DNA from: Escherichia coli
Lineage (GTDB): Bacteria > Pseudomonadota > Gammaproteobacteria > Enterobacterales > Enterobacteriaceae
DNA: 64,000 nt
Assembly: GCF_024700885.2 (NCBI RefSeq)
Contig: NZ_CP117016.1
Direction: 5' to 3' (one strand)
The notes beneath the pieces were generated by a model that did not search any database, was not told where the DNA came from, and saw nothing but the letters and a program-made list of their open reading frames with translations. The position numbers and the translations under genes are program-made. Positions 25,930 through 53,960 of the stretch are shown here, one piece after another; position 1 is the first letter of the stretch, and the number at the start of each line of letters is the position of its first letter.

Positions 25930-25938
25930 TCATTTTCC

Positions 25939-27591
25939 TTAATGTCCCGCAGGGCAACTGGCGCAGCGGTGTTGCTGCTCAAACTGACTAAAGAAATTAT
26001 TGCCTTTATCATCTACCAGGATGAATGCGGGTAAATTTTCCACTTCCATCATCCACACCGCTTCCATACCCAGCTCCGGGTATTCCAGGCAACGCAGACT
26101 TTTGACATATTCTTGCGCCAGTAACGCAGCTGCACCGCCAATACTTCCCAGATTGAAGCCGCCATGTTTGTGACAGGCATCGGTGACCTGCTGGCTGCGG
26201 TTACCTTTCGATAACATCACCAGACTGCCGCCAGCCGCCTGGAAGGTATCGACATAACCGTCCATTCGTCCACCCGTGGTTGGACCCAGTGAACCGCAGG
26301 CCATGTTCTCCGGTGTTTTCGCCGGGCCAGCGTAATAGACAATATGATGCTTCAGGTAATCCGGCATCGATTCGCCGCTATCCAGCCGCGCTTTTATTTT
26401 GGCATGGGCGATATCGCGCGCCACTACGATGGGACCACTTAACGACACGCGGGTGCCTACCGGTAATCTGGCGAGATCCTGCATCACGTCACGCAACGGA
26501 CGGTTTAGATCCAGCTGTACATGTTGCGCGTGATTTTCTTCCCGCAGTGAGGCTGGAATATATTGCCCCGGATTGTGTTCGAGTTTTTCCAGCCAGATAC
26601 CGTGTTTGTTAATTTTTGCTTTGATATTGCGATCGGCAGAACAGGAGAGCGCCATAGCTATCGGGCAAGAGCCACCGTGACGCGGCAGACGAATGACGCG
26701 AATATCATGAGCGAAATATTTACCCCCAAATTGCGCACCAATACCAAATTGCTGACTGGCGTTGAGCAACGCTTTTTCCAACTCAATATCACGGAATGCT
26801 TGTCCCTGCTCGTTTCCGCTGGTGGGCAAATTGTCGTAATATTTCGTTGAGGCCAGCTTGGCAACTTTTAAGGTTTGATCGGCTGAAAGCCCTCCGACGA
26901 CAAAGGCGATGTGATAAGGCGGGCAGGCAGCGGTGCCCAGCGATTTCATTTTTTCGATTAAAAATGCGGTCAGTTTTTCTGGTTGCAATAGGGATTTTGT
27001 TTCCTGATAAAGCGCGGCTTTATTGGCAGAGCCCCCCCCTTTATTAATACAGAGAAAATGGTACTCATCACCAGCGACGGCGCTGATATCAATCTGCGCC
27101 GGTAGATTGGTTTGCGTATTGACTTCGGTATACATATCCAGTGGCGCATTTTGTGAAAAGCGCAGATTATTTTCCTGAAAAGTGGTGTAAATGCCTTTGC
27201 TTAAGGCTTCGGCGTCGTTACCTCCGGTCCATATCTGTTGCCCTTTACTGGCAACAATAGTTGCGGTGCCGGTATCCTGACAGTTGGGTAATACCCCTTT
27301 TGCTGAGACTTCAGCATTACGTAATAACTGCAACGCAACGTATTTATCATTACTGCTGGCCTGCGGATCGTTAAGAATGCTGGCGACCTGTTGCAAATGA
27401 GCGGAACGTAAGAAAAAAGAGGCTTCATAAAATGCCTGCCGGGCAAGCAGCGTTAATGCTTCAGGAGCGATTTTTATCACTTCTTCGCCGTCTAATTCCG
27501 TTACTGTAATATGTTGATCGCTAATTAATGTATATTCTGTACCGTCTTTATTTTGTAGATACGGTTCTTGCCAGATAAATGGTTTGGACAT
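25939..27591 (-). CDS. fumD: Class I (FumA/FumB-like) fumarate hydratase family protein, probable mesaconase, 550 aa
   Basis: FumA-sized single polypeptide of the Fe-S hydro-lyase family; location in the glutamate mutase/methylaspartase cluster corresponds to the mesaconase/fumarase FumD described for E. coli O157:H7 (from memory). Confidence 0.8.
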
Positions 27592-27698
27592 ATTTCACTT
27601 TTCACCTTAAACGTTAGTGTTACTTAATTGCCGTCTAACTTCATGATCCGGCTTATAAAAATGCGTAGTCATTGGCTTCTGATTGCTTAAGATCCCCC

Positions 27699-28979
27699 TC
27701 AGGGCAGAGCAACGTTCGATTCATTGGGTTTTAATGCTTTACCCCGACAACCCTCGCCGAAATGTTCGCCTTCCCACCGACTCACCAACGCAGCGCCCAT
27801 TGCGTTGCTCATGACGTTTGTCGCGGAACGCCCCATATCAAGGAACGGATCAACGCCCATCAGCAAGATCAGCCCCGCTTCCGGAATATTGAACTGGTTG
27901 AGCGTGGCGGCGATAACCACCATTGAGGCGCGTGGTACGCCAGCCATTCCTTTCGAGGTCAACATCAGGATCAACAGCATGGTGATTTGCTCACCGATGG
28001 ATAAATGGATATTGCAGGCCTGGGCGATGAAAACTGTGGCGAAGGAGCAGTAGGCCATTGATCCAACGAGATTAAATGAGTAGCCAATGGGTAAGACAAA
28101 GCTGGCAATTTTGGGGGAAACGCCAAATTGCTCCAGTTTTTCAAGCGTTCCCGGAAAAGCAGCTTCAGAACTGGATGTGGTAAATGCCAGCAGGGCGGGT
28201 TCCGAAAGGGCACGGGTCAGGCGTCTGATGCAGGGGCCGACATAAACGATGGCCAGACCGATAAGCAGCACCCAAAGTAACAACATGGTGAAATAAAATT
28301 CACCCATAAAGATCCCGGCGCTCACCATAACTGCCAGTCCTCGTTCAGCAATCAATGCTGAAATAGCGGCGAATACGGTCAGGGGAGCGAAGAGCATGAC
28401 GTAGCCAGTGAGCTTTAACATGGCATGTGCCAGCGAATCTAAGGCGTGAACGATGGCGCTGCCTTTCTCACCAATCGCCGTCAGGCTACAGCCGAGGAAA
28501 ATTGAGAACACCACGATTTGCAAAATTTCATTGTGCGCCATGGCATCGACAATGCTGGTGGGGAAAGCATGCGAAATAAATACTTTTAGCGTAAAGGGTT
28601 CTGACGCGACCACTCCGGTGGTTTCGGCACCGTGTGCAACAAAATTAATTCCTGTGCCTGGCATGAAGAAATTTACCGTTATCAAGCCTAAGGCAATTGA
28701 CAGCAATGAGGCGCAAATAAATAAAAAGAGTGTTTTAGAAAAAATACGACCAAGGGCTTTGGCATCGCCCATTTTAGCAATACCTACCACCAGGGTAGAG
28801 ACCACTAACGGAGCGATAATCATTTTTATCAGTCGTAAGAAAATCGTCGTGAATATCGATATTTCTTGCGCATAGAGTTTTGCTGTTTCCGGTGAAGCAG
28901 TGTTATTGATCACTACGCCGATAATCATTCCAAGTACCAGCGCCAAAAGAATCATCGTGGTTAAACTTATTTTCTTCAT
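27699..28979 (-). CDS. Dicarboxylate/amino acid:cation symporter (DAACS, GltP/DctA-like) family transporter, about 426 aa
   Basis: Multi-pass hydrophobic ORF with the family-typical N-terminus; start placed at MKKISL (ATG at 28979), preceded by GGAGGA 7 nt upstream; the ORF-track start at 29000 is a GTG. Confidence 0.8.
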   Translation of the reverse strand: MKKISLTTMILLALVLGMIIGVVINNTASPETAKLYAQEISIFTTIFLRLIKMIIAPLVVSTLVVGIAKMGDAKALGRIFSKTLFLFICASLLSIALGLITVNFFMPGTGINFVAHGAETTGVVASEPFTLKVFISHAFPTSIVDAMAHNEILQIVVFSIFLGCSLTAIGEKGSAIVHALDSLAHAMLKLTGYVMLFAPLTVFAAISALIAERGLAVMVSAGIFMGEFYFTMLLLWVLLIGLAIVYVGPCIRRLTRALSEPALLAFTTSSSEAAFPGTLEKLEQFGVSPKIASFVLPIGYSFNLVGSMAYCSFATVFIAQACNIHLSIGEQITMLLILMLTSKGMAGVPRASMVVIAATLNQFNIPEAGLILLMGVDPFLDMGRSATNVMSNAMGAALVSRWEGEHFGEGCRGKALKPNESNVALP

Positions 28980-29139
28980 TTTTTCCTCCATCAGGTGCAC
29001 GGCGATAAATCAGAATCAGGAGAAGTAGATGCCCGAATAAAAATTCAGGCATCTACCTGCTATTACAACCTTACAAATAGCTGAAGTGTTGAACTGCAAT
29101 AAGTGACGGGATGTCAGTTGGCTAAAAGTGTTCGGATTT

Positions 29140-29457
29140 TTACAAATCGAAACTCATATTTAATAAAGGTGCATGTTGCTGTGCACCATAGACATCATTG
29201 TCACCTACATTCCCGGAGATAATATCTCGTGGCATGACGATTTTTACTGCGTTAGAAGGATCAAACCAGACAATACGATGAATAAAGTCAGGTTCAACAT
29301 GATATAAGCGCGCGATCAGTTCTGGGGTTAATTGCCCTGATGATTTAACTCGCTCATAGTTTTCTTTGGTTTTAAATAAAATATCTAAAACCAGTTCGTA
29401 AGGTCCGGCATTTTTCGAACGAATGACTTGCGCCAGTGAGACAATTGACTGTTTCAT
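29140..29457 (-). CDS. DUF4387-like small protein, 105 aa
   Basis: Small soluble ORF whose start overlaps the stop of the upstream DUF1446-like gene by 4 nt; family assignment from recollection of the DUF1446/DUF4387 pair. Confidence 0.6.
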   Translation of the reverse strand: MKQSIVSLAQVIRSKNAGPYELVLDILFKTKENYERVKSSGQLTPELIARLYHVEPDFIHRIVWFDPSNAVKIVMPRDIISGNVGDNDVYGAQQHAPLLNMSFDL

Positions 29458-30824
29458 GCCTGAACTCCTTCTGGCGTCACCTGTTCAATATGGAAATCAA
29501 AACGCAGAGCGTCGTTGGCTTCAATCAGGTGATATATGGAAAATTCGTATACCGGCCCGCCCTGAATATCAGAAGGGGAGAACGGGAATGCCAGGTTGCC
29601 TGCGGTAGCGATGCGGTTTTCATAGCCGTAGTGCAGCATAGTAGAGCGCACCAGCGAGCAAACGCTATTGGCAATATCCTGGGTCGGTGCAACTACATCA
29701 AGGACAATCCCCAGCTCATGCCCGGCAGTTTGCATCGGTTCATGGTCGCCCATCACCCCGTTTTTGCCGTACAGGTGGAAATTGATGCGAATGCTGTCAT
29801 CGTCGAGCGACAGGTTACGCGAAACGCTGGTTTTGACTTCATCGATGATTTTATCGATCCCGGCGATCATGATCGGGTCGCGCGTTCCGGCGATGGTCAG
29901 ACAGCGGAAGCCCACCCGTCGCGCACCTTCCAGTTTCAGGGCATACGGCGTTTCTTCATGCTTAGAACCGCTGACGTACACTTCGCCGTCATTGACCGCT
30001 TTAAATGTGCAGCCTTTCAGGTTCAACACGCCGCCAGGTCCTGGCAGGAAGTAGGGATCGGATTTCTCATACAGTGTGTGTGCAGCTGCTGACGTTTCGG
30101 TAAATTTACGCTTCGGATTAAATGTCTTCAGCGTAAAGCCGTTGTCATCAATGATGCCCATCGCACAGTCAGAGCCTGAGCCGGGCGTTGCGGCGATTGC
30201 CGCGCATTCAAGGATTTTCCCACAATGCAGCGCCAGACCTTCATCAAAGCCTTGCATGATCGGTAGCGCAGCAAAGCAGGCCGGGTCGTAAGCGCGCCCG
30301 CCCAGCACCACTTGCGCGCCTTCTTTCAGCGCCTGCTGGAAGGGTTCGATGCCCATTTGCGCGACGATATACGTACTTTCGTCAATCGCGTCGTGGGTTA
30401 ACGGCGGGACAAAATCCAGCGCCGTGATTTTGCCGTTATCCAGCGCCTGGTGGACGATGGCTTTGTCAACGTCTGCCGGGATCAGCGCCATCGAGAACGA
30501 GAGGTGCTCTTCCCGGGCAATCTCATGAATTATTTCTCGGCACCACTCCAGGTGTGGAGCGGCACCAGAACCGCCGGCCGTTCCGATCACCACCGGTATA
30601 TTATTTTGCACGCCTGCGGTGATCATATAGCGCAGATCGCGCTTGACCCCTGCGCGATCGGTAAACGGTTTGCCCGCCCCGAGGTAGTGGGGGCCAGGAT
30701 CGGAAGAGCCAGCATCAACGGCGATCAGATCGGGCGATTCTGCCATCGCTTTGCGGAAGCTCTCCTCCGGGAATCCATACCCGAGGATTGCCGTAGGCGA
30801 TAAGACTTTAAAAGAACGAGCCAT
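29454..30824 (-). CDS. AtuA-like (DUF1446) family protein, 456 aa
   Basis: About 450-aa soluble ORF resembling acyclic-terpene-utilisation AtuA-like proteins (my recollection); 3 nt downstream of the methylaspartase gene in the same operon. Confidence 0.6.
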   Translation of the reverse strand: MARSFKVLSPTAILGYGFPEESFRKAMAESPDLIAVDAGSSDPGPHYLGAGKPFTDRAGVKRDLRYMITAGVQNNIPVVIGTAGGSGAAPHLEWCREIIHEIAREEHLSFSMALIPADVDKAIVHQALDNGKITALDFVPPLTHDAIDESTYIVAQMGIEPFQQALKEGAQVVLGGRAYDPACFAALPIMQGFDEGLALHCGKILECAAIAATPGSGSDCAMGIIDDNGFTLKTFNPKRKFTETSAAAHTLYEKSDPYFLPGPGGVLNLKGCTFKAVNDGEVYVSGSKHEETPYALKLEGARRVGFRCLTIAGTRDPIMIAGIDKIIDEVKTSVSRNLSLDDDSIRINFHLYGKNGVMGDHEPMQTAGHELGIVLDVVAPTQDIANSVCSLVRSTMLHYGYENRIATAGNLAFPFSPSDIQGGPVYEFSIYHLIEANDALRFDFHIEQVTPEGVQA

Positions 30825-30827
30825 TTG

Positions 30828-32069
30828 TTAATCCTTAGCCTGCAACAGCGCGATAGTACGATTCATTTCGTTGAAGACGATATCGAGGCCTTCGTCAAAG
30901 CCCATCCCTGGCTTTACCAGCATACGCATAGGGCGAGCGGCAAGGGCGATGTGGACACAGGTGCGGGCACTGACATCAGTTTCATTGCAGGTGCCGCCCT
31001 GGTACGCTTCCATGCTGTGGCTATTGCAGTAAAGAACCGCATCGACGATGTTGTGAATACTGCCCAGATCCGGGGTTTTGATTTGCACCATGTGACAACT
31101 GGCGGCATCAGTAAAATCAACAATATCCTGGTAGGTGTTACACCATTCATCGGCCACAATTTTCACGCCGGAACCGAGGCGCGTCAGCTCTTTGGTAATC
31201 GCGGTCAGCAGGCGAATTTGATCGGGCTTGTTACCGGCATCGACCGGACCTTCAATGTAGAGCGGCAGGCCTTGCGCTTCTTTTTCCAGGCTGGCGATGT
31301 ATTGCGCACAGCGAAGCGGATCCATATCGAAGATCAGACCGATAGTGCCGTATACATCGATGTGCAGGGTAGGGTGGTAGCGTGCGCTGGTGCGCTTGCT
31401 CAGAATACGATCCGACAGCCAGCGGACATATTCGCGCAGTTTTTCACCTTTAAAGCCCAGTTTCTCTTCGACGTTATTAATCAGTGCATGGGGCAGCACG
31501 TCGATGCCCTTAAGGATCATCTTATCGACGGCGATATATCGATCGTCGCCGCTCTGACCAAATAATGGAATGGATTCCGCCACGCGTGGCAACTGCCATT
31601 CATCACAGACCACTTCAGTTTTCAGACGGCCGGTTGCCAGCGCGGTAGCATCAAGCAGCGCCTGTGATAATCCGTAGCGCACGGCGGTATGCAGCAAGTT
31701 GCCGTCAATACGCAATTTGTCGAAGAAACGGGCATTCGGCAGGAAAGCATCTACATCGCGGCCTACCAGTAATGGCTTGATATGGTCGTTGAGGAACGGA
31801 ATAAAGTGCTCTGCGAGGAACAGTGGATCGCGACCACCTGCCCCGGAATACTGTACGGCAGCACAGTCACCTACGGCGACCGCGCCGTTTTCCAGAATCA
31901 ACTGTACCGATACGCACTCCCCGGCCTGACGTACGGCGTTAAACCCCTGTGTTACTGGCTCCCCGGTATAAAAAAAGCCGTCGTGACCCGCTCCGTTTTT
32001 TATCGCCTGCTGGTCATCGAAATAGAATGAGGAGTAGCCAGCGGTGAACAGGGCCTGTTTTATTTTCAT
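30828..32069 (-). CDS. 3-methylaspartate ammonia-lyase (methylaspartase, enolase superfamily), 413 aa
   Basis: N-terminus MKIKQALFTAGYSSFYFDDQQAIKNGAGHDGFFYTGEPVT and length are typical of methylaspartase; start overlaps the glmE stop. Confidence 0.9.
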   Translation of the reverse strand: MKIKQALFTAGYSSFYFDDQQAIKNGAGHDGFFYTGEPVTQGFNAVRQAGECVSVQLILENGAVAVGDCAAVQYSGAGGRDPLFLAEHFIPFLNDHIKPLLVGRDVDAFLPNARFFDKLRIDGNLLHTAVRYGLSQALLDATALATGRLKTEVVCDEWQLPRVAESIPLFGQSGDDRYIAVDKMILKGIDVLPHALINNVEEKLGFKGEKLREYVRWLSDRILSKRTSARYHPTLHIDVYGTIGLIFDMDPLRCAQYIASLEKEAQGLPLYIEGPVDAGNKPDQIRLLTAITKELTRLGSGVKIVADEWCNTYQDIVDFTDAASCHMVQIKTPDLGSIHNIVDAVLYCNSHSMEAYQGGTCNETDVSARTCVHIALAARPMRMLVKPGMGFDEGLDIVFNEMNRTIALLQAKD

Positions 32070-33514
32070 TATGGTCTTCCTATTAATTTACTGTGGGATA
32101 CAGCATTGATGTCATCTACAACCATCTGGAATGTCGGTTGGCGTCCTTCAAAGCGTGCGCGTTCCGCAACGTAATCGTGGTGGAGGTCGAGAATATCTTT
32201 TGGCAATGGAACGGCTCCGGCTTCCAGTACGCGTATCGCGCCGGTGTTGTCACGGACCGGAAGAATTTTGCCCGCGTTGCAGGCGGCTGGCGCAAACGGC
32301 ACATCCAGTACGCCCGCTTCAAATGCCAGCACCGTACCGCGCGCAATATCACCATTACCCAGTTCGAACACTTTATTCAGTACCGCGCGAACCTCGCTCT
32401 TAATCAGTTCAATTTCCAGTTCAACCGCAGGGCAAGGCGGGAATTTCTGCTCGTTGACCATGTTGAGCATCTGGCGGGAGGCTTTCAGCCCCTGAATGTT
32501 GGCAGCGGCAGTCGGGATGCCCCAGGCTTCGTGCGGACTTTTGGTGATGACTTTGGTGGCACCAGACATCCCCGCGACGGCTGCACCCCAGGAGATAATG
32601 GCGAACGCTTTCGATTCGTCTTCCGGAAAGCCGCCCATCCACTGGTGAAACACGGTACTTAATTCATAGTCGGTATAGCCATAGCTCTGAAAGTATTCGT
32701 GTGCAAGTTCACGCAGAGACTGGATCGCCGCGACATCCTGCGTCAGGCTGCCGACCTGTCCATAACCAACGGTGATAGATTTCACACCCTGTTCCAGCGC
32801 CAGTAATCCTTCGATTATCGCGATAGAGTGCGAGATAAACGGCGGGATCAGCGTACCCGTTAGTGGGCCAAACGGTTCGCGGTTGATGCGGATCCCGTGT
32901 TCTTCATACATCCCCATTAAACGATCGCAGTACTGCCAGTCGCGGATCGATTTTTCCAGCGTTACGCGCTTGGCATACGGAATATTGTAGGAAATGCCGC
33001 CGCCTTCATAACTGGTAAAGCCGCTGGCCATCGAGATTTCAGCCAGCAGACGCGCATCTGGCGTGCCGTGGCGGATCTGTAGCGGTTTTTGCAAAGTTTC
33101 GGTGAGGCGACGGCAAGCTGCGACGCCGTGGTTAACTACCGGTAAACCGTTCAGTTTAGAGGTTCCGGCTTCGATGGATTTTTTAATCCCTACAGCCGCT
33201 TCTTCGTACCGATTCAGACGGGTATATGCATCGATGGTGCTCGGCAGCAGATCGCACTCTTCTTGTGGTGTTTTCAGTAGTTCGATGTGTTCGTCCATCA
33301 GCGCCACGCCTGCGCGCGGTTGGCTAAGAGTTTTACCTTCCTTGTCTGCTTTCAGCAGGGCAAGAGAGAAGCGTTTATGCTCAGGAATGGTTTGTTGGTA
33401 TTTAACGCCATCTTCAAAGTTTTCAACATCCTTGCCGGTTTCCCAGGTTTTCAGTACCTGTTGCCGCTCGGTCATGAATTCGTCATGGGTTAATTTCTTA
33501 TTTCGAAGTTCCAT
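32069..33514 (-). CDS. glmE: Glutamate mutase epsilon (catalytic, E) subunit, 481 aa
   Basis: Length and sequence consistent with methylaspartate mutase E chain; sits between glmL and the methylaspartase gene as in clostridial glmS-glmL-glmE clusters. Confidence 0.88.
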   Translation of the reverse strand: MELRNKKLTHDEFMTERQQVLKTWETGKDVENFEDGVKYQQTIPEHKRFSLALLKADKEGKTLSQPRAGVALMDEHIELLKTPQEECDLLPSTIDAYTRLNRYEEAAVGIKKSIEAGTSKLNGLPVVNHGVAACRRLTETLQKPLQIRHGTPDARLLAEISMASGFTSYEGGGISYNIPYAKRVTLEKSIRDWQYCDRLMGMYEEHGIRINREPFGPLTGTLIPPFISHSIAIIEGLLALEQGVKSITVGYGQVGSLTQDVAAIQSLRELAHEYFQSYGYTDYELSTVFHQWMGGFPEDESKAFAIISWGAAVAGMSGATKVITKSPHEAWGIPTAAANIQGLKASRQMLNMVNEQKFPPCPAVELEIELIKSEVRAVLNKVFELGNGDIARGTVLAFEAGVLDVPFAPAACNAGKILPVRDNTGAIRVLEAGAVPLPKDILDLHHDYVAERARFEGRQPTFQMVVDDINAVSHSKLIGRP

Positions 33515-33749
33515 TGATTGCAGCCTTAATTGTTATAGGGTTAAGCATTGAATACTGGTGCGCGCGGCGGCCAGTGGATCGACTCTGGCGACGTTTGCCA
33601 GCAGTGGTAATAGCCCCCGGGAATCGCGGTAATATTCAAATTCGGTCGGTAAGAGAATGCGTTTACCGTCGTCGTTTAACTCGCGGTATTTCAACCAGTG
33701 ATGCATATCGAACTGACTGGCACGCGAGAGCCATCCGCCGGAACCAACG

Positions 33750-33757
33750 ACTTTACG
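33750..33757. repeat. Target-site duplication (left copy) ACTTTACG
   Basis: 8-bp direct repeat immediately flanking the IS26 left inverted repeat. Confidence 0.85.
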
Positions 33758-34577
33758 GGCACTGTTGCAAATAGTCGGTGGTGATAAACTTATCATCCCC
33801 TTTTGCTGATGGAGCTGCACATGAACCCATTCAAAGGCCGGCATTTTCAGCGTGACATCATTCTGTGGGCCGTACGCTGGTACTGCAAATACGGCATCAG
33901 TTACCGTGAGCTGCAGGAGATGCTGGCTGAACGCGGAGTGAATGTCGATCACTCCACGATTTACCGCTGGGTTCAGCGTTATGCGCCTGAAATGGAAAAA
34001 CGGCTGCGCTGGTACTGGCGTAACCCTTCCGATCTTTGCCCGTGGCACATGGATGAAACCTACGTGAAGGTCAATGGCCGCTGGGCGTATCTGTACCGGG
34101 CCGTCGACAGCCGGGGCCGCACTGTCGATTTTTATCTCTCCTCCCGTCGTAACAGCAAAGCTGCATACCGGTTTCTGGGTAAAATCCTCAACAACGTGAA
34201 GAAGTGGCAGATCCCGCGATTCATCAACACGGATAAAGCGCCCGCCTATGGTCGCGCGCTTGCTCTGCTCAAACGCGAAGGCCGGTGCCCGTCTGACGTT
34301 GAACACCGACAGATTAAGTACCGGAACAACGTGATTGAATGCGATCATGGCAAACTGAAACGGATAATCGGCGCCACGCTGGGATTTAAATCCATGAAGA
34401 CGGCTTACGCCACCATCAAAGGTATTGAGGTGATGCGTGCACTACGCAAAGGCCAGGCCTCAGCATTTTATTATGGTGATCCCCTGGGCGAAATGCGCCT
34501 GGTAAGCAGAGTTTTTGAAATGTAAGGCCTTTGAATAAGACAAAAGGCTGCCTCATCGCTAACTTTGCAACAGTGCC
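33758..34577 (+). mobile_element. IS26 (IS6 family), complete 820-bp copy
   Basis: 14-bp terminal inverted repeats GGCACTGTTGCAAA (33758-33771) and TTTGCAACAGTGCC (34564-34577); internal transposase matches IS26 Tnp as I recall; flanked by 8-bp direct repeats. Confidence 0.93.
33821..34525 (+). CDS. tnpA: IS26 transposase Tnp26 (DDE), 234 aa
   Basis: MNPFKGRHFQRDIILWAVRWYCKYGISYRELQEMLAERGVNVDHSTIYRWVQRYAPEMEK is the canonical IS26 transposase N-terminus (from memory); start placed at the ATG 18 nt inside the ORF-track start. Confidence 0.93.
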   Translation: MNPFKGRHFQRDIILWAVRWYCKYGISYRELQEMLAERGVNVDHSTIYRWVQRYAPEMEKRLRWYWRNPSDLCPWHMDETYVKVNGRWAYLYRAVDSRGRTVDFYLSSRRNSKAAYRFLGKILNNVKKWQIPRFINTDKAPAYGRALALLKREGRCPSDVEHRQIKYRNNVIECDHGKLKRIIGATLGFKSMKTAYATIKGIEVMRALRKGQASAFYYGDPLGEMRLVSRVFEM

Positions 34578-34585
34578 ACTTTACG
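34578..34585. repeat. Target-site duplication (right copy) ACTTTACG
   Basis: 8-bp direct repeat immediately flanking the IS26 right inverted repeat. Confidence 0.85.
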
Positions 34586-35748
34586 CACGGTTGTCAGGTC
34601 ACGTCCCATCTGTAAATCGACATTGCCGACGCAGGTGCAGACCTCTTTTTTGGTGCCCGCATGTCTTTCGGTGGCATAACCCACACACAGTCCGGCCAGG
34701 ACGGTATCGAAATATTTTTCTTCTGCATTCGCGGGTAAGTAGTCGGGATGAGCGACTAGATGGCGGAGGTAATGATAAAAAGCGTCCAGCTGTGCGGGTT
34801 GCTGAGCAAAATTCACATTGACTAACTCTTTCGCACTTTCACCAACCACCATTGCCGAGACGCGCATTCCCAGATCGCCTTCCACCGTCCGTTTCACGAA
34901 GGGTTCCGGTACGCCGTGTAAAACGGTGTCGGGCGAGAGCGTGTTGGCACAGGCGGAATAGACATCGGTGGTTGCGCCACCCATGTCGATCAGCATGAAC
35001 TCTTTCCAGCTGTGATCGACGTTACTGATTGCCTTAACCAGTTCAAAGACCGTCCATGGTGTCGGCATTGGTTCTTCGCCTGTTTTATCAACAATGACAT
35101 CCAACCCTTTCCCTTTAACGATGCGTTTAAGGAATATGTCGCAGATAGCCTGGCGTGCAGCTAAAGGGTTCGGATGGTCAAGATCGGGCAGAACGTTGTC
35201 GACGATGGTCAGGTCTTTATGCCCGAGGATCTCCTGCACCTCGTCCTGAATATCCCGGTTTCCGGCATAAATAATGGCGCAGTCGAGTTTGGATTCTGCC
35301 AACACACGGGCGTTATTCAGTCCGTAGCTTTCTTCTCCGCCATCGGTGCCGCCGGTGAACAAGAGAATATCGGGCTGCGTTTCTTCCAGTGCCTGGATAT
35401 CACGGCGGTTCAGCTTGTAGGCGTAATATTGCGCAATTTTAGCACCCGCAGAGTGAGCGGTTACTTTCGCGGTTTCCAGGGTGATAGAAGGCACCAATCC
35501 CATTGCGGCAACCGCCAGCCCACCTTTGGCAGAGGAGGAATACTTCAATGCAACCTCACCACTGTTTAACAGGGGGAGGGCATTATCTACGTTTAACACC
35601 TGGTCCAGGCTGGAGAAAAACCCCTTCGCCAGATGATGGGTGGTGGTTGGGGTCAGAACGTGGTTAACCAACGTTAACGCGTCCCCCTCCCGGGTGAAGA
35701 GGGCTGCTTTGGTCCACGTCGAACCAATATCGACAGAGACGATTTGCA

Positions 35749-36198
35749 TCAGATTGCCTCTTCAAGAATGCGAGTATCAACGTCATGACGTTGGTTGATA
35801 TCGTGGGCCATCAGCTGACAAACATCTTCTAAGTCATGACTTGGGGAAAAGACGCGATCAAATCCCATCTCTTTGAACTTGGTTTCCACGTCAGCGAAGT
35901 CATGTTTTCCGACCACCAGGTTACCGCCCACATAGAGCAGGATGTTACCCAGCCCACGCTCGATGCAGCGTTCGCGCATGCCCAGACAATCGATATCGCC
36001 ATGCCCATAGATAGAGGAGACGACAATCGCGTCAGCACCAGTTTCAATGGCAGCATCAATATATTCGTCCTGGCTGACCATTACGCCCAGATTAATAACT
36101 CTGAAGTCATGGTTGCTAAAAACGCGGTCCAGAACTTTATTGCCTACTGCATGGCAGTCCGCGCCAATAACGCCAATCACAAGTGTTGCTTTCTTCAT
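35749..36198 (-). CDS. glmS: Glutamate mutase sigma (B12-binding, S) subunit, about 149 aa
   Basis: [24 protein letters not shown] contains the DxHxxG cobalamin-binding signature; start at ATG 36198 preceded by AGGA; stop overlaps the glmL start (ATGA). Confidence 0.88.
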
Positions 36199-36745
36199 GG
36201 GTAATCCTTTGTAAGACAGAGAGTAAAATAAGTTACACACGTCGTATTTATGGCCGCTCATAACGGCACAGGTTTAATATCACAGGAGTGTCTTTATCTG
36301 ACCGTAATGTTGCAATTGATCTATTTTCAAAATGTCTTTCGGGAAATGATTGTTTAAAGTGTGTTTTCAAATTCTCATTTTAATTCAGTGTGTTATGTCA
36401 ACTAATGTCATGAATGTTAAATTTTTAAAATTAACTTGATTTGATGTATTGAGATAATTGTGATCAACTTCTAATTTGCATTTTTGTGACGTGGCTTTAG
36501 CCATGAGTAAATACATTTCATAAAAGTTAAGTCGAATTTCACTGCAATTCATCTCTGCTTAATGTAAAAATAATGTTGAAAATAACAAATAATTAATGAT
36601 TCATGCGAATTATGACCTTTGTTAGCTCTTTTGATTTTTCGTAAAAAAGAAAAGTACATGAAGGTGCTACCAGTACGAGTAACGTTAATCAAAAGTTTTA
36701 TTACGTCTGGCAATAACGCAGGCCATTTTTCGCGACAGGAGGGAT

Positions 36746-37168
36746 TTAATCAGTATAATCCTCATACAATAGGTCAGGATTTACTGAACCGTTAACGGGG
36801 ATTTGGTGTTGAAATTTAGAAATGGCGGAGTCAATTAATGAAGACAATATCGGAAAAATGACAGTGTCAGAATTAATTTCAATTAATCCTTCTCGTTGTT
36901 GACCAAAAAAGATATTTATCTTGATTTCATTTGTACTACGGCAATCAATATGCAGTAATTTTTGATCGCTGAGATTTTCTGTTTCATAAATGTTTTTGGC
37001 GATAGTCGGATGTATTGATGCCAGACATCTGCTCAGATAAGCCAGATCCTTTAGGGAACACCCCGCTGAGTAGAGGATGTCAGAGAATTTTTGTGTGTCA
37101 ACTGTTGTCTCTGAAGCGTATGTTGCATTGACAGGAAGGGTGTTGAAAGAGATTTGAGATGGGATCAT
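36746..37168 (-). CDS. Hypothetical protein, 140 aa, no recognisable family
   Basis: ORF in a markedly AT-rich block; co-directional with and 80 bp downstream of the 314-aa orphan ORF; coding status unverified. Confidence 0.45.
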   Translation of the reverse strand: MIPSQISFNTLPVNATYASETTVDTQKFSDILYSAGCSLKDLAYLSRCLASIHPTIAKNIYETENLSDQKLLHIDCRSTNEIKINIFFGQQREGLIEINSDTVIFPILSSLIDSAISKFQHQIPVNGSVNPDLLYEDYTD

Positions 37169-37248
37169 TATTTAAATCTTTCCGTGAGTAATAAAAATTA
37201 ATCCCCGGGCATTGTTTAGCAATATTTGCCACAGGGAATATATAAAAA

Positions 37249-38193
37249 TTAAAGTATTTGATTGGCATCGGTTAACTGATCAATAACCAGTGCCAGATTG
37301 GTAAACATTTTGAAAAAGCGATACTGGCTCGGAATATCTCTTTCAAAGACGAAACATTCAATGTCATTGTTTGAAAAATAAAGGACTAGTGTTGCTGATT
37401 CGTCAGGAAAAATATGGAAATATATCTGGTTACCAGAAGGAGGATAGTCCAGATGAAGGGTATCTTTGCCCGTCACATACCTGTTGTGGTCGTGGATGCT
37501 GCGCTCACACTTCATCAGAGGTGTCATGATACTCATGTATTCATCTGATGTTAATATATTAAAATCACCATCCATTTTAAAGAAACGATAAAGTAACAGT
37601 ACATCCTCTTGCGTAACCGGTTCGTTTGTTTTTAGAGGGAAATAAGTGGGAACCAGAAGATGAGGTTCTAATCTATTTTGTTGAGCGCTATAACTAAATT
37701 TGAACATAAATTCCGGATCGCTCATTAATTGAGCGACATAATTATGCCTGGCTTCAAAAATTTTAACTTTTATCAGGTTAAATAAGTCTGTTTCGTTATC
37801 CTGTATTAAAAGACATTGGCCATAGCAGCCAGGCTTTTTTTCATTATAAGCAGAAACGGTTATTCTGTCAGGAGTGTCAACGTTATATCCAAAAGCCAGA
37901 TAGTGACCTTCCTCATCGAGATTTGTTTCCAGGTTATTTAAATTCATCACATGAAGTGTTTGCAATGCTGATTCAATGAGCTGTTGACTCTCTGAGGTAA
38001 ATGTTTCGCGCTGCGTTGTATAAAGTGTATCGATTCCAACGACTATCCGATGTGGGTCAAGGATGGCGGCAATCATCTTTATTACCTGCACAGTCATGGG
38101 TGATGTCATTGATTCTTTATCTGTTTTTAGAGGATCATTAGATGGCCAACCTGAGAAGCGATTGACAGCAGAACTGATATTATCAGGACTCAT
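37249..38193 (-). CDS. Hypothetical protein, 314 aa, no recognisable family
   Basis: Longest ORF in an AT-rich region with no competing frame; no signal peptide or transmembrane segment evident; no motif I can assign. Confidence 0.55.
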   Translation of the reverse strand: MSPDNISSAVNRFSGWPSNDPLKTDKESMTSPMTVQVIKMIAAILDPHRIVVGIDTLYTTQRETFTSESQQLIESALQTLHVMNLNNLETNLDEEGHYLAFGYNVDTPDRITVSAYNEKKPGCYGQCLLIQDNETDLFNLIKVKIFEARHNYVAQLMSDPEFMFKFSYSAQQNRLEPHLLVPTYFPLKTNEPVTQEDVLLLYRFFKMDGDFNILTSDEYMSIMTPLMKCERSIHDHNRYVTGKDTLHLDYPPSGNQIYFHIFPDESATLVLYFSNNDIECFVFERDIPSQYRFFKMFTNLALVIDQLTDANQIL

Positions 38194-38647
38194 AGCAGCA
38201 ACCTCATTGTAATCAAGCGAGGCGCTGAGCGTACTCGGCTATAGAAAAACTAACTTGCAAAAATCGCTCATTTTTCATTTATCAGGCGAAAGTGGTCTCT
38301 GTTCACTCAGAAACAATCACTCCCGCTAAGTCATACCTGTATCATCGATACATTTAAGTGATTATTACTAATGAAACAATAACATAACGGGCTTACGGCC
38401 GGTGCTCATAAACGCAACAATCAATTAACTTTGATAAAAATATGTTATGTAAAATAGCAACAAATTGGCTAATCTAATCAATTGGTATTATAAAAAGTGG
38501 ATAAGGCGGTTCTGTTAAATAAAACACTGGTTTTTTATCTATACCTTTTCATTGTAATAATTGTGTTGCATAAATATTTCACAATAAATTAACAATAAAA
38601 TTACCAATGATCTATGGTTTATACATAATTAACATATTTGGTTGGTT

Positions 38648-38661
38648 TTGATATAAATCAA
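38648..38661. promoter_or_regulatory. FNR-type site TTGATATAAATCAA in the cydA upstream region
   Basis: Perfect TTGAT-N4-ATCAA palindrome about 340 bp upstream of cydA; cydAB is known to be FNR/ArcA regulated. Confidence 0.55.
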
Positions 38662-38998
38662 TTTTTAATTCTTGAAAAAAATCTGCAAAACACGATAAAT
38701 TGTCGTAGATCAAATTGGTGAGATCGTGACAATTTCGCTATAAATTGATCACTGTCGAAAAATGCAAATTTGCTCAATAAAAACCTGTTTATTGTAAGGA
38801 TTTTGCGGCGTAATATAATTACGGGATCAATTTGGTTTATTCATTAACATATTTGTAACTTTTTTATCATTGTCTTTTCCTCTTTTGATGAAATGGCAAC
38901 GATAGAGGCGAGCAAATAATTTTGTATTGGGGCATGCGTGTGACCCTTTCTAACGGGGTTCACTCTCGGAGTCTTCATGCGATGAGCAAGGAGTCATG

Positions 38999-40567
38999 AT
39001 GTTAGATATAGTCGAACTGTCGCGCTTACAGTTTGCCTTGACCGCGATGTACCACTTCCTTTTTGTGCCACTGACGCTCGGTATGGCGTTCCTGCTGGCC
39101 ATTATGGAAACGGTCTACGTCCTTTCCGGCAAACAGATTTATAAAGATATGACCAAGTTCTGGGGCAAGTTGTTTGGTATCAACTTCGCTCTGGGTGTGG
39201 CTACCGGTCTGACCATGGAGTTCCAGTTCGGGACTAACTGGTCTTACTATTCCCACTATGTAGGGGATATCTTCGGTGCGCCGCTGGCAATCGAAGGTCT
39301 AATGGCCTTCTTCCTCGAATCCACCTTTGTAGGTCTGTTCTTCTTCGGTTGGGATCGTCTGGGTAAAGTTCAGCATATGTGTGTCACCTGGCTGGTGGCG
39401 CTCGGTTCAAACCTGTCCGCACTGTGGATTCTGGTTGCGAACGGCTGGATGCAAAACCCAATCGCGTCCGATTTCAACTTTGAAACTATGCGTATGGAGA
39501 TGGTGAGCTTCTCCGAGCTGGTGCTTAACCCGGTTGCTCAGGTGAAATTCGTTCACACTGTAGCGTCTGGTTATGTGACTGGCGCGATGTTCATCCTCGG
39601 TATCAGCGCATGGTATATGCTGAAAGGTCGTGACTTCGCCTTCGCTAAACGCTCCTTTGCTATCGCTGCCAGCTTCGGTATGGCTGCCGTTCTGTCTGTT
39701 ATTGTTCTGGGTGATGAATCTGGTTACGAAATGGGCGACGTGCAGAAAACCAAACTGGCTGCTATTGAAGCCGAGTGGGAAACGCAACCTGCGCCTGCTG
39801 CCTTTACTCTGTTCGGCATTCCTGATCAGGAAGAGGAGACGAACAAATTTGCGATCCAGATCCCTTACGCGCTGGGCATCATTGCAACGCGTTCCGTGGA
39901 TACTCCAGTTATCGGCCTGAAAGAACTGATGGTGCAGCATGAAGAACGCATTCGTAACGGGATGAAGGCGTACTCTCTGCTCGAGCAACTGCGTTCTGGT
40001 TCTACCGACCAGGCGGTTCGTGACCAGTTCAATAGCATGAAGAAAGACCTCGGTTACGGTCTGCTGCTGAAACGCTATACGCCAAACGTGGCTGATGCGA
40101 CTGAAGCGCAGATTCAACAGGCAACCAAAGACTCCATTCCGCGTGTAGCGCCGCTGTACTTCGCGTTCCGTATCATGGTGGCGTGTGGCTTCCTGCTGCT
40201 GGCAATCATCGCGCTCTCTTTCTGGAGTGTCATCCGCAACCGCATTGGCGAGAAAAAATGGCTGCTGCGCGCCGCGCTGTACGGTATTCCGCTGCCGTGG
40301 ATTGCTGTAGAAGCGGGCTGGTTTGTGGCTGAATATGGCCGCCAACCGTGGGCTATCGGTGAAGTGCTGCCGACAGCTGTGGCGAACTCGTCACTGACCG
40401 CAGGTGATCTCATCTTCTCAATGGTGCTGATTTGCGGCCTGTATACCCTGTTCCTGGTGGCAGAATTGTTCTTAATGTTTAAATTTGCACGCCTCGGCCC
40501 AAGCAGCCTGAAAACCGGTCGCTATCACTTTGAGCAGTCTTCCACGACTACTCAGCCGGCACGCTAA
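38999..40567 (+). CDS. cydA: Cytochrome bd-I ubiquinol oxidase subunit I, 522 aa
   Basis: [41 protein letters not shown] matches CydA; start at the second ATG. Confidence 0.96.
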
Positions 40568-40582
40568 GACAGGAGTCGTCAA

Positions 40583-41722
40583 ATGATCGATTATGAAGTA
40601 TTGCGTTTTATCTGGTGGCTGCTGGTTGGCGTTCTGCTGATTGGTTTTGCAGTCACTGACGGTTTCGACATGGGGGTGGGCATGCTCACCCGTTTCCTCG
40701 GTCGTAACGACACCGAGCGTCGAATTATGATTAACTCCATTGCACCACACTGGGACGGTAACCAGGTTTGGCTGATCACCGCAGGCGGCGCACTCTTTGC
40801 TGCCTGGCCGATGGTCTATGCCGCTGCGTTCTCCGGCTTCTATGTGGCGATGATCCTCGTGCTGGCGTCTTTGTTCTTCCGTCCGGTCGGTTTTGACTAC
40901 CGCTCCAAGATTGAAGAAACCCGCTGGCGTAACATGTGGGACTGGGGCATCTTCATTGGTAGCTTCGTTCCGCCGCTGGTGATTGGTGTAGCGTTCGGTA
41001 ACCTGTTGCAGGGCGTACCGTTCAACGTTGATGAATATCTGCGTCTGTACTACACCGGTAACTTCTTCCAGCTGCTTAACCCGTTCGGCCTGCTGGCAGG
41101 CGTGGTGAGCGTAGGGATGATCATTACTCAGGGCGCAACCTATCTGCAAATGCGTACCGTGGGCGAACTGCACCTGCGTACCCGTGCAACGGCTCAGGTG
41201 GCGGCACTGGTGACACTGGTCTGTTTCGCACTGGCTGGCGTATGGGTGATGTACGGTATCGATGGTTATGTTGTGAAATCAACAATGGATCATTACGCGG
41301 CATCTAACCCACTGAATAAAGAAGTGGTTCGTGAAGCTGGCGCATGGCTGGTTAACTTCAACAACACGCCGATTCTGTGGGCTATTCCGGCACTGGGTGT
41401 GGTTCTGCCGCTGCTGACCATCCTGACTGCACGTATGGATAAAGCCGCGTGGGCGTTTGTGTTCTCCTCCCTGACGCTGGCCTGCATCATCCTGACAGCC
41501 GGTATCGCAATGTTCCCGTTTGTGATGCCGTCCAGCACCATGATGAACGCAAGTCTGACAATGTGGGATGCAACTTCCAGCCAGCTGACACTTAACGTCA
41601 TGACCTGGGTTGCGGTGGTTCTGGTACCGATCATTCTGCTCTACACTGCCTGGTGTTACTGGAAAATGTTCGGTCGTATCACCAAAGAAGATATTGAACG
41701 TAACACCCACTCTCTGTACTAA
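40583..41722 (+). CDS. cydB: Cytochrome bd-I ubiquinol oxidase subunit II, 379 aa
   Basis: Membrane ORF following cydA; length matches CydB. Confidence 0.96.
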   Translation: MIDYEVLRFIWWLLVGVLLIGFAVTDGFDMGVGMLTRFLGRNDTERRIMINSIAPHWDGNQVWLITAGGALFAAWPMVYAAAFSGFYVAMILVLASLFFRPVGFDYRSKIEETRWRNMWDWGIFIGSFVPPLVIGVAFGNLLQGVPFNVDEYLRLYYTGNFFQLLNPFGLLAGVVSVGMIITQGATYLQMRTVGELHLRTRATAQVAALVTLVCFALAGVWVMYGIDGYVVKSTMDHYAASNPLNKEVVREAGAWLVNFNNTPILWAIPALGVVLPLLTILTARMDKAAWAFVFSSLTLACIILTAGIAMFPFVMPSSTMMNASLTMWDATSSQLTLNVMTWVAVVLVPIILLYTAWCYWKMFGRITKEDIERNTHSLY

Positions 41723-41736
41723 GTAAGGAGCTAAAA

Positions 41737-41850
41737 ATGTGGTATTTCGCATGGATTCTGGGAACGCTTCTTGCCTGTTCGTTTGGGGTAATCACTGCGC
41801 TGGCGCTTGAGCACGTCGAATCAGGCAAAGCCGGTCAAGAAGACATCTGA
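41737..41850 (+). CDS. cydX: Cytochrome bd-I accessory small protein CydX (YbgT), 37 aa
   Basis: ATG 41737 after GGAG; translation MWYFAWILGTLLACSFGVITALALEHVESGKAGQEDI; too short for the supplied ORF track. Confidence 0.88.
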   Translation: MWYFAWILGTLLACSFGVITALALEHVESGKAGQEDI

Positions 41851-42143
41851 TGAGTAAGATTATCGCAACCTTGTATGCGGTAATGGACAAGCGCCCCCTG
41901 CGGGCGCTTTCCTTCGTGATGGCGCTTCTGTTAGCAGGATGTATGTTTTGGGACCCATCTCGTTTTGCCGCGAAGACCAGTGAACTGGAAATCTGGCATG
42001 GTTTATTGCTGATGTGGGCCGTCTGTGCTGGTGTGATTCACGGCGTGGGCTTTCGTCCGCAGAAGGTTCTCTGGCAAGGGATTTTTTGCCCATTGCTTGC
42101 CGATATTGTTCTCATTGTCGGGCTGATTTTCTTCTTCTTTTAA
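41850..42143 (+). CDS. ybgE: Small membrane protein YbgE, 97 aa
   Basis: Start overlaps the cydX stop (TGATG); hydrophobic 97-aa ORF as in K-12. Confidence 0.88.
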   Translation: MSKIIATLYAVMDKRPLRALSFVMALLLAGCMFWDPSRFAAKTSELEIWHGLLLMWAVCAGVIHGVGFRPQKVLWQGIFCPLLADIVLIVGLIFFFF

Positions 42144-42165
42144 ATCAGAATTCTCTTTAAAAAAT

Positions 42166-42196
42166 TATGGGCCGCTCCAGGCCCATAAATTTTTAC
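42166..42196 (+). terminator. Rho-independent terminator after ybgE
   Basis: Hairpin TATGGGCC-GCTCCAG-GGCCCATA followed by a T-run. Confidence 0.75.
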
Positions 42197-46583: not shown

Positions 46584-47129
<546 letters not shown>

Positions 47130-47138
47130 GAGAATTGC

Positions 47139-47930
47139 ATGAGCAGTAACTTCAGACATCAACTATTGAGTCTGTCGTTACTGGTTGGTATAGCGGCCCC
47201 CTGGGCCGCTTTTGCTCAGGCACCAATCAGTAGTGTCGGCTCAGGCTCGGTCGAAGACCGCGTCACTCAACTTGAGCGTATTTCAAATGCTCACAGCCAG
47301 CTTTTAACCCAACTCCAGCAACAACTCTCTGATAATCAATCCGATATTGATTCCCTGCGCGGTCAGATTCAGGAAAATCAGTATCAACTGAATCAGGTCG
47401 TGGAGCGGCAAAAGCAGATCCTGTTGCAGATCGACAGCCTCAGCAGCGGTGGTGCAGCGGCGCAATCAACCAGCGGTGATCAAAGCGGTGCGGCGACATC
47501 AACGACGCCGACAGCTGATGCTGGTACTGCGAATGCTGGCGCGCCGGTGAAAAGCGGCGATGCAAACACGGATTACAATGCAGCAATTGCGCTGGTGCAG
47601 GATAAATCCCGCCAGGATGACGCAATGGTGGCATTTCAGAATTTCATCAAAAATTACCCTGATTCAACTTACCTGCCAAACGCCAATTATTGGCTGGGTC
47701 AGTTAAACTACAACAAGGGTAAAAAAGATGATGCGGCGTATTATTTTGCTTCGGTAGTGAAAAACTATCCGAAGTCACCGAAGGCTGCAGATGCGATGTT
47801 TAAAGTCGGCGTCATCATGCAGGACAAAGGTGACACCGCAAAAGCGAAAGCCGTATACCAGCAGGTTATCAGTAAATACCCTGGTACTGATGGCGCTAAA
47901 CAGGCGCAAAAACGTCTGAACGCGATGTAA
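47139..47930 (+). CDS. cpoB: Cell division coordinator CpoB (YbgF), TPR protein, 263 aa
   Basis: Signal peptide, coiled-coil and TPR-like C-terminus; follows pal. Confidence 0.94.
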   Translation: MSSNFRHQLLSLSLLVGIAAPWAAFAQAPISSVGSGSVEDRVTQLERISNAHSQLLTQLQQQLSDNQSDIDSLRGQIQENQYQLNQVVERQKQILLQIDSLSSGGAAAQSTSGDQSGAATSTTPTADAGTANAGAPVKSGDANTDYNAAIALVQDKSRQDDAMVAFQNFIKNYPDSTYLPNANYWLGQLNYNKGKKDDAAYYFASVVKNYPKSPKAADAMFKVGVIMQDKGDTAKAKAVYQQVISKYPGTDGAKQAQKRLNAM

Positions 47931-48094: not shown

Positions 48095-48170
48095 GGGTCG
48101 TTAGCTCAGTTGGTAGAGCAGTTGACTTTTAATCAATTGGTCGCAGGTTCGAATCCTGCACGACCCACCA
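48095..48170 (+). tRNA. lysT: tRNA-Lys (anticodon UUU)
   Basis: 76-nt GGGTCGTTAGCTCAGTTGGTAGAGCAGTTGACTTTTAATCAATTGGTCGCAGGTTCGAATCCTGCACGACCCACCA; anticodon loop CTTTTAA; encoded CCA. Confidence 0.97.
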
Positions 48171-48198
48171 ATCGCTAAGGTGGACGCGGTAGTAAAAC

Positions 48199-48270
48199 GT
48201 GAAGGATAACGTTGCGTCAGCAACGGCCCGAAGGGCGAGACGAAGTCGAGTCATCCTGCACGACCCACCA
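48199..48270 (+). repeat. Spacer repeat ending in a duplicated tRNA-Lys 3' end (copy 1)
   Basis: GTGAAGGATAACGTTGCGTCAGCAACGGCCCG...TCATCCTGCACGACCCACCA recurs at 48694-48763; the last 20 nt equal the tRNA-Lys acceptor/T-arm end. Confidence 0.8.
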
Positions 48271-48305
48271 CTAACCTAGTTAGTTGTAGTATCCAGCGTA
48301 GTATC

Positions 48306-48381
48306 GGGTGATTAGCTCAGCTGGGAGAGCACCTCCCTTACAAGGAGGGGGTCGGCGGTTCGATCCCGTCATCACCCACCA
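48306..48381 (+). tRNA. valT: tRNA-Val (anticodon UAC)
   Basis: 76-nt GGGTGATTAGCTCAGCTGGGAGAGCACCTCCCTTACAAGGAGGGGGTCGGCGGTTCGATCCCGTCATCACCCACCA; anticodon loop CTTACAA. Confidence 0.97.
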
Positions 48382-48383
48382 CC

Positions 48384-48459
48384 GGGTCGTTAGCTCAGTT
48401 GGTAGAGCAGTTGACTTTTAATCAATTGGTCGCAGGTTCGAATCCTGCACGACCCACCA
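48384..48459 (+). tRNA. lysW: tRNA-Lys (anticodon UUU)
   Basis: Identical 76-nt tRNA-Lys sequence. Confidence 0.97.
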
Positions 48460-48510
48460 CTAATTACGGTGGGTTCGGTGGAAGTAGTTTGTAGTATCCA
48501 GCGCAGTATC

Positions 48511-48586
48511 GGGTGATTAGCTCAGCTGGGAGAGCACCTCCCTTACAAGGAGGGGGTCGGCGGTTCGATCCCGTCATCACCCACCA
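48511..48586 (+). tRNA. valZ: tRNA-Val (anticodon UAC)
   Basis: Identical 76-nt tRNA-Val sequence. Confidence 0.97.
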
Positions 48587-48589
48587 CTC

Positions 48590-48665
48590 GGGTCGTTAGC
48601 TCAGTTGGTAGAGCAGTTGACTTTTAATCAATTGGTCGCAGGTTCGAATCCTGCACGACCCACCA
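48590..48665 (+). tRNA. lysY: tRNA-Lys (anticodon UUU)
   Basis: Identical 76-nt tRNA-Lys sequence. Confidence 0.97.
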
Positions 48666-48693
48666 ATTTTAACATCAAACTCAGATGTTAAGC

Positions 48694-48763
48694 GTGAAGG
48701 ATAACGTTGCGTCAGCAACGGCCCGTAGGGCGAGCGAAGCGAGTCATCCTGCACGACCCACCA
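48694..48763 (+). repeat. Spacer repeat ending in a duplicated tRNA-Lys 3' end (copy 2)
   Basis: Near-identical to 48199-48270. Confidence 0.8.
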
Positions 48764-48811
48764 ATTTTAAAGATTGGTTCCGAGTAGAAATCTTTCAGGT
48801 AACACCCGTAT

Positions 48812-48887
48812 GGGTCGTTAGCTCAGTTGGTAGAGCAGTTGACTTTTAATCAATTGGTCGCAGGTTCGAATCCTGCACGACCCACCA
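48812..48887 (+). tRNA. lysZ: tRNA-Lys (anticodon UUU)
   Basis: Identical 76-nt tRNA-Lys sequence. Confidence 0.97.
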
Positions 48888-48920
48888 TCCTGAATGATTA
48901 AAGCAGCATAATCCCGCAAG

Positions 48921-48996
48921 GGGTCGTTAGCTCAGTTGGTAGAGCAGTTGACTTTTAATCAATTGGTCGCAGGTTCGAATCCTGCACGACCCACCA
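48921..48996 (+). tRNA. lysQ: tRNA-Lys (anticodon UUU)
   Basis: Identical 76-nt tRNA-Lys sequence, followed by a terminator. Confidence 0.97.
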
Positions 48997-52506: not shown

Positions 52507-52733
52507 AGGATGCTCCTGTTATGGTCGTTATGTCGGATAACCTCTTCCAACAGTGCATTTGCAGGTGAATATAAGGCAATGGTTTAAGATTTCAGCCAGG
52601 CAAAGATACCCAGCAGAGAATCTTGAAATAATTAACAAACAAAGGAGTTACAGTTAGAAATTGTAGGAGAGATCTCGTTTTTCGCGACAATCTGGCGTTT
52701 TTCTTGCTAATTCCAGGATTAATCCGTTCATAG

Positions 52734-53884: not shown

Positions 53885-53960
53885 TCGGATGCGCCGTCAG
53901 AGTGGCGTATCCGATGAATCACCGTAGCCCTGACAAGACGCGTAGCGTCGCATCAGGCAA
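53885..53960. repeat. REP-type extragenic palindromic element(s)
   Basis: CGGATGCGCCGTC...GACGCGTAGCGTCGCATCAGGC palindromic units typical of E. coli REP/BIME downstream of aroG. Confidence 0.7.

Follow-up and report, generated by a model that had tools for sequence, protein, structure and literature searches.

Two short open reading frames in a 64-kb stretch of Escherichia coli DNA as the known small-protein genes cydX and acrZ

CydX, a subunit of the cytochrome bd-I oxidase, contacts transmembrane helices 1, 4, 5, 6 and 7 of CydA and is crucial to the assembly and stability of the complex and to bd-I activity (PMC8951039). It is required for oxidase activity, deletion mutants show oxidase-deficient phenotypes, and the part of the protein that matters for its function is the N-terminal region, with Y3, W6 and G9 named as well-conserved residues; the cydABX-ybgE operon has also been described (PMC6005532). 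AcrZ attaches to AcrB at its transmembrane domain, and cells that lack AcrZ become more sensitive to some of the AcrB substrates, e.g., chloramphenicol. Pro16 of AcrZ and the bend resulting from it are needed for AcrB binding, AcrZ and cardiolipin jointly modulate the AcrB drug-binding pocket allosterically, and transcription of acrZ is coregulated with that of acrAB (PMC7267776).

We analyzed a 64-kb stretch of E. coli DNA (the window) in which CydX and AcrZ had been read from the sequence as clearly encoded although both were absent from the accompanying list of open reading frames (ORFs). The two ORFs are almost certainly the known E. coli genes cydX, the third gene of cydABX-ybgE, and acrZ, which is monocistronic. 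Biologically, nothing about them is new, as structures and genetics are available for both proteins and RefSeq annotates them routinely. An ORF listing made with a minimum of 60 aa contains neither gene and has spurious overlapping ORFs in their place, for example, one of 73 aa at 61814-62035 on the minus strand, antisense to acrZ. The absence of cydX and acrZ from the accompanying list is explained by their length alone, which is below such a threshold. The features of the cyd locus are as follows.

38999-40567, plus strand: cydA, known from annotation and a clean translation; encodes a large subunit that CydX joins and lies in the same operon as cydX
40583-41722, plus strand: cydB, likewise annotated and cleanly translated; encodes a large subunit that CydX joins, same operon as cydX
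41724-41730, plus strand: Shine-Dalgarno (SD) sequence TAAGGAG of cydX, inside the 14-nt cydB-cydX gap, with a 6-nt spacer to the ATG at 41737
41737-41850, plus strand: cydX, 37 aa, ATG to TGA, single transmembrane helix; cytochrome bd-I subunit X
41850-42143, plus strand: ybgE, 97 aa, final gene of cydABX-ybgE (Pfam PF09600, 116.1 bits; NCBIfam NF007881, 185.2 bits)
42165-42188, no strand assigned: bidirectional intrinsic-terminator-like hairpin with a 9-bp stem and T-runs on both strands, which ends the cyd operon

The position that had been called conserved is indeed found: cydX begins 14 nt downstream of the cydB stop codon (TAA at 41720-41722), and the spacer between the two genes has the same sequence in K-12. 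At the other end, the TGA of cydX (41848-41850) and the ATG of ybgE (41850-41852) share one nucleotide (TGATG), and this stop/start overlap suggests translational coupling. No terminator was found between cydB and cydX; the first terminator-like hairpin is the one at 42165-42188, past ybgE. The spacing, the stop/start overlap and the lack of an internal terminator fit cotranscription of cydABX-ybgE.

The translation of 41737-41850 on the plus strand is MWYFAWILGTLLACSFGVITALALEHVESGKAGQEDI. With 37 aa and one hydrophobic helix, it fits the family criterion of about 30 to 40 aa and a single transmembrane helix, and its N terminus, MWYFAWILG, has the conserved Y3, W6 and G9. It scored 53.9 bits against Pfam PF08173 (YbgT_YccB; cutoff, 26.2) and 70.7 bits against the NCBIfam equivalog TIGR02106 (cutoff, 31.6). 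Nine PDB entries match, and the protein is 100% identical over 37/37 residues to chain X of cytochrome bd-I (6RKO; 6rko_X). Compared to the K-12 gene, cydX has two nucleotide differences, both synonymous and in third positions, and the frame is intact.

The second gene, acrZ, lies between modE and modA, also as had been described for it, with the following layout.

61054-61842, minus strand: modE
61961-61964, plus strand: SD sequence GGAG of acrZ, 6 nt ahead of the ATG at 61971 and adjoining a TTG at 61965
61971-62120, plus strand: acrZ, 49 aa, ATG to TGA, single bent transmembrane helix with Pro16; AcrB accessory protein
62127-62150, plus strand: intrinsic terminator of acrZ, beginning 7 nt past the stop codon; a 9-bp stem with 5 GC pairs followed by CTTTTTCTCA
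62286-63059, plus strand: modA

Since an intrinsic terminator follows directly after acrZ, the gene forms a monocistronic unit separate from modABC. AcrZ scored 102.9 bits against Pfam PF10766 (cutoff, 26.2), with residues 1 to 47 of 49 covered, and NCBIfam had no HMM that matches it. The protein is 100% identical over 49/49 residues to chain C of 4C48 (4c48_C), in which AcrZ is bound to AcrB; seven PDB entries match, including 5NC5, 6SGR and 6SGS. Residue 16 is a proline. Not a single nucleotide of acrZ differs from K-12, and the 128-nt modE-acrZ intergenic region has two substitutions. Alignment to the reference genes thus revealed no frameshift and no stop codon in either cydX or acrZ. The gene for the partner protein AcrB is located outside the 64-kb window.

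A mechanical ORF caller places the start of acrZ at the TTG at 61965, which is in frame, two codons before the ATG, and is the first start codon past the upstream stop; the product would have 51 aa (MTMLELL...). This start is very unlikely. It is implausible because GGAG and TTG adjoin with no spacer between them, and the SD energy is +0.7 for the TTG compared to -5.9 for the ATG at 61971. Moreover, every annotation and every AcrZ seen in crystals or by cryo-electron microscopy starts with MLELL and has 49 aa, and the PF10766 alignment begins at residue 1 of the 49-aa protein. The 51-aa form was rejected on these grounds, and the ATG at 61971 is taken as the start of acrZ in what follows.

A simple scan for sigma-70 promoters upstream of acrZ gave no consensus promoter. 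By eye, a TAGAAT hexamer is visible upstream of the gene at 61937-61942; a good -35 element is absent. Hobbs et al. 2012 reportedly give the marbox detail for acrZ as part of the mar/sox/rob regulon. When the window was scanned with the marbox consensus AYNGCACNNWNNRYYAAAY, allowing at most two mismatches, 19 matches were obtained, with 17.1 expected by chance, and none of them was upstream of acrZ.

Good ribosome-binding sites (RBS) and single hydrophobic helices had been ascribed to both genes, and both attributes hold up when scored across the window. All 3,085 ATG, GTG or TTG starts of ORFs of 10 to 70 aa, in six frames over the whole window, were taken as candidates, and each start was scored by the energy of its anti-Shine-Dalgarno duplex and by the best mean Kyte-Doolittle hydropathy over 17 residues. 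The SD of cydX scored -8.4 kcal/mol and its helix 2.12, and only 3 of the 3,085 candidates were equal or better on both scales. For acrZ, with -5.9 kcal/mol and 2.98, the only such candidate was acrZ itself (1/3,085). The median for the annotated long genes was -6.0 kcal/mol. The low-threshold scan for small ORFs that had been proposed as a check thus makes cydX and acrZ stand out.

Short ORFs are plentiful, as the 3,085 candidate starts show, and cydX and acrZ could be chance frames or decayed remnants that resemble the known genes and have no function in the window strain. Against this stand, besides the full-length 100% identity to proteins in solved complexes, an RBS and terminator that are intact and differences from K-12 that are only synonymous. 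The genes are also nearly universal in the species: cydX with its RBS was found with an identity of at least 95% in 5,425 of 5,426 complete E. coli genomes, and acrZ with its terminator in 5,391, of which 5,367 had at least 99% identity. In identical E. coli genomes, RefSeq/PGAP has a "cytochrome bd-I oxidase subunit CydX" and a "multidrug efflux pump accessory protein AcrZ" at the exact homologous coordinates; the segment from 35000 to 45000 matches several complete genomes with 100% identity, e.g., NZ_CP117013.1. At the homologous coordinates, the curated K-12 record has cydX as b4515 and acrZ as b0762, and the annotation of O157:H7 Sakai has ECs_5391 and ECs_0790, respectively.

Ribosome profiling had been named as a further check, and published data for strain Sakai, whose locus is the same as that of the window, island included, show footprints on both genes. 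In LB, cydX had RPKM values of 1,037.1 in the transcriptome and 455.6 in the translatome, with a coverage of 1.00 (PMC5597208, S2 Table). For acrZ, the values were 385.5 and 914.3, with an RCV of 2.44 and again a coverage of 1.00 (PMC5597208, S2 Table). That study worked with LB and BHI cultures and with ORFs from 30 aa upward, with cutoffs of 0.5 or higher for coverage and 0.25 or higher for RCV (PMC5597208). Identity to the structures, synonymous-only change, footprints and near-universal presence together effectively refute chance frames or remnants, a reading to which we give next to no chance. The two ORFs are therefore treated as cydX and acrZ, and no result speaks against this identification.

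The broader statement of the original prediction, that an ORF track with a length threshold loses short genes, is borne out as well, and by more than the two genes it had listed. The gltA-sdhC intergenic region contains two further ones.

13628-13735, minus strand: ybgU, 35 aa; DNA identical to K-12 b4735; Pfam PF23495, 100.5 bits
13612-13644, minus strand: ybgV, 10 aa, GTG start; DNA identical to K-12 b4768

The reading frames of ybgV and ybgU differ, and the two genes overlap at the 3' end of ybgU. The YbgU protein has been seen by tagging, and YbgV is supported by ribosome profiling and tagging (bioRxiv 10.1101/511675). The 60-aa threshold conceals these two genes also, so that at least four validated genes are hidden in the 64-kb window. 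Given this cutoff and the spurious antisense ORFs in the track, findings that rest on the absence of an ORF need caution. Scoring has its own gap: simple RBS and hydrophobicity scores pick out membrane small proteins cleanly and would miss YbgU and YbgV. RBS scoring is insensitive, since the SD of the validated YbgU reaches only -4.3 kcal/mol, a value reached by 41 of 304 intergenic candidate starts. Three ORFs from the Sakai profiling study, XECs071 to XECs073, are near gltA, ybgU and ybgV, and a fourth, XECs074 (14001-14105, plus strand), is a candidate with an ATA start in the sdhC 5' leader that the authors' classifier calls "pseudo."

At 36.2 to 38.9 kb, in the leaders of a genomic island, further short ORFs had been thought possibly real as well. 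The island extends from 23830 to 38622 (14.8 kb, including an IS26) and takes the place of K-12 mngR-mngA-mngB between sucD/SdhX and the upstream region of cydA. It carries genes for a LysR regulator, cobO, a class I fumarase, a dicarboxylate symporter, a DUF4387 protein, AtuA and methylaspartate ammonia-lyase, as well as glmE, glmL, glmS and two hypothetical proteins; the pathway is the B12-dependent methylaspartate pathway of glutamate fermentation. About 1,134 of the 5,426 complete E. coli genomes have the island, including O157:H7 (ECs_0755-0767). The sRNA SdhX lies at 23723-23823 on the plus strand, at the 3' end of sucD, with two mismatches to K-12; Rfam at its gathering threshold did not report it. 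The following island features are of relevance here.

33758-34577, strand not assigned: IS26, a complete copy of 820 bp that interrupts the methylaspartate mutase accessory gene glmL
36746-37168, minus strand: hypothetical protein, 140 aa
37249-38193, minus strand: hypothetical protein, 314 aa, adjacent to the former; both at the cydA-proximal edge of the island, with a GC content of 30 to 43%

IS26 has perfect 14-bp terminal inverted repeats, GGCACTGTTGCAAA, a transposase ORF of 240 aa at 33803-34525 on the plus strand and an 8-bp target duplication, ACTTTACG, at 33750-33757 and 34578-34585. The closest genome, MLI114, is without this insertion. Among the 5,426 complete E. coli genomes, none had the junction of IS26 and glmL; the matches to the IS end were mostly on plasmids. 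With IS26 in glmL, the glutamate mutase operon is probably inactivated or under polar effects in the window strain. Scans of the two hypothetical proteins (36746-38193) with Pfam, NCBIfam and PADLOC gave no significant match. Both diverge faster than glmS (88 to 92% versus 99.6% identity in one strain), and the 140-aa protein is frameshifted in an O145 strain.

The noncoding stretches tested for short genes were 36199-36745, 37169-37248 and 38194-38998, with GC contents of 25 to 40%. That at least one short ORF in this region (36.2 to 38.9 kb; island leaders and cydA upstream region) is truly translated, for instance as a leader peptide of glmS-L-E, is unlikely. Real short genes do get missed, as ybgU and ybgV exemplify, and the insensitivity of RBS scoring noted above could hide another, but none of the 73 candidate starts combined an ATG with an SD of -5.5 kcal/mol or better. 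The candidate with the best SD, a GTG-initiated ORF of 12 aa at 38268-38306 on the minus strand, had one synonymous versus seven nonsynonymous codon differences across four strains. In these four divergent strains 38 of the 73 ORFs were intact; however, at a GC content of 25 to 40%, the survival of stop-free short ORFs between close strains is expected by chance. The leader DNA changes between strains at least as fast as the genes next to it (91.4% identity versus 99.6% for glmS in one strain), and no synonymous-biased change was seen for any of the 73 candidates in the four strains, which are 91 to 98% identical, a comparison with low power for invariant ORFs. Rfam gave no leader or riboswitch at the gathering threshold or at an E value of 1 or below, and in the leader of the glutamate mutase operon no cobalamin riboswitch or leader was found at these thresholds.

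One published RIBOseq candidate does fall into the region, XECs075 at 38752-38847, with an RCV of 0.75 and a coverage of 0.76 in BHI. However, it begins with CTG, lacks both an SD and homologues, was labeled "pseudo" by the classifier of the study's authors and falls in a gap of the K-12 sequence. It sits on the plus strand in the 5' region of cydA, in DNA common to K-12, and the Sakai RIBOseq data contain no candidate inside the island-specific leaders. Another ORF of this region, 38922-38999 on the plus strand, was dropped from the intergenic candidates as its TTG start codon is lost in K-12, where it reads TTC. The extrapolation from cydX and acrZ to short genes in the island leaders is thus not supported.

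Outside the island, in the 5' region of ybgS, there is a 25-codon ATG ORF at 52654-52731 on the minus strand, MNGLILELARKTPDCREKRDLSYNF, whose SD scores -5.7 kcal/mol. It is annotated nowhere, is under the 30-aa limit of the Sakai study and is invariant in K-12 and Sakai, so its conservation is uninformative. We consider it slightly less likely again than translation of one of the leader ORFs above that an ORF of less than 30 aa is translated as a leader or regulatory peptide, whether in the glutamate mutase operon leader (36199-36745), upstream of cydA (e.g., XECs075) or, for example, upstream of ybgS at 52654-52731. A further intergenic candidate with ATG and SD, 53897-53953 on the minus strand, was rejected since it has five amino acid changes compared to K-12. 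For the ATG-plus-SD candidate at 11923-11970 on the plus strand, the K-12 and Sakai loci compared had no alignable counterpart.

Some other features of the window were recorded. Rfam places the CpoB/ybgF intercistronic RNA thermometer in the pal-cpoB gap at 47030-47168 on the plus strand (142 bits). It also finds the lysT-valT array at 48095-48993 on the plus strand, with seven tRNAs, two RtT-like repeats and spacer lengths unlike those of K-12. The sucB-sucC intergenic region (21594-21686) is about 180 bp and the sdhB-sucA intergenic region (17360-17391) about 100 bp shorter than in K-12; these shorter gaps may reflect repeat (REP-type) elements that are present in K-12 and missing from the window strain.

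By identity to the proteins in the solved structures and from the literature, the roles of the two proteins in the window strain can be proposed. CydX would be made from its own strong RBS, and its single helix would pack against CydA; the cytochrome bd-I quinol oxidase would depend on CydX for stable assembly and for its activity. The bent helix of AcrZ is predicted to occupy a groove in the transmembrane domain of AcrB, as in the chains of the AcrB-AcrZ structures, and would shift the substrate preference of AcrAB-TolC allosterically, with, e.g., an increase in chloramphenicol resistance.

Among known systems, AppX/CbdX of the bd-II oxidase and CydS of Geobacillus thermodenitrificans belong to the same family and have the same role as CydX, that of a single-helix subunit beside the CydA or AppC helices (PMC8951039). 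AppX, however, is encoded in the app operon, outside the locus of the window, and the protein of the window is the bd-I paralogue: it matched the CbdX model NF011333 only weakly, with 21.7 bits, far under the cutoff of 57 bits. The pairs MgtS-MgtA and CydH/YnhF-bd-I follow the same principle, in which a one-helix peptide of less than 50 aa alters the stability or activity of a large membrane complex (PMC7267776; PMC8951039; bioRxiv 10.1101/511675). MgtS and CydH/YnhF are unrelated in sequence to CydX and AcrZ, however, have other partners and other loci, and are not encoded in the window. The closest counterparts are the K-12 proteins. K-12 AcrZ (YbhT; b0762; PDB 4C48, 4CDI, 5NC5, 6SGR and 6SGS) is the same in DNA, protein, modE-acrZ-modA position, terminator and Pro16. 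K-12 CydX (YbgT; b4515; PDB 6RKO and 6RX4) has the same 37 aa, position after cydB, RBS spacer and overlap with ybgE; its locus differs in the two synonymous nucleotides and in having mngRAB upstream of cydA, where the window has the methylaspartate island, an exchange that leaves cydX untouched.
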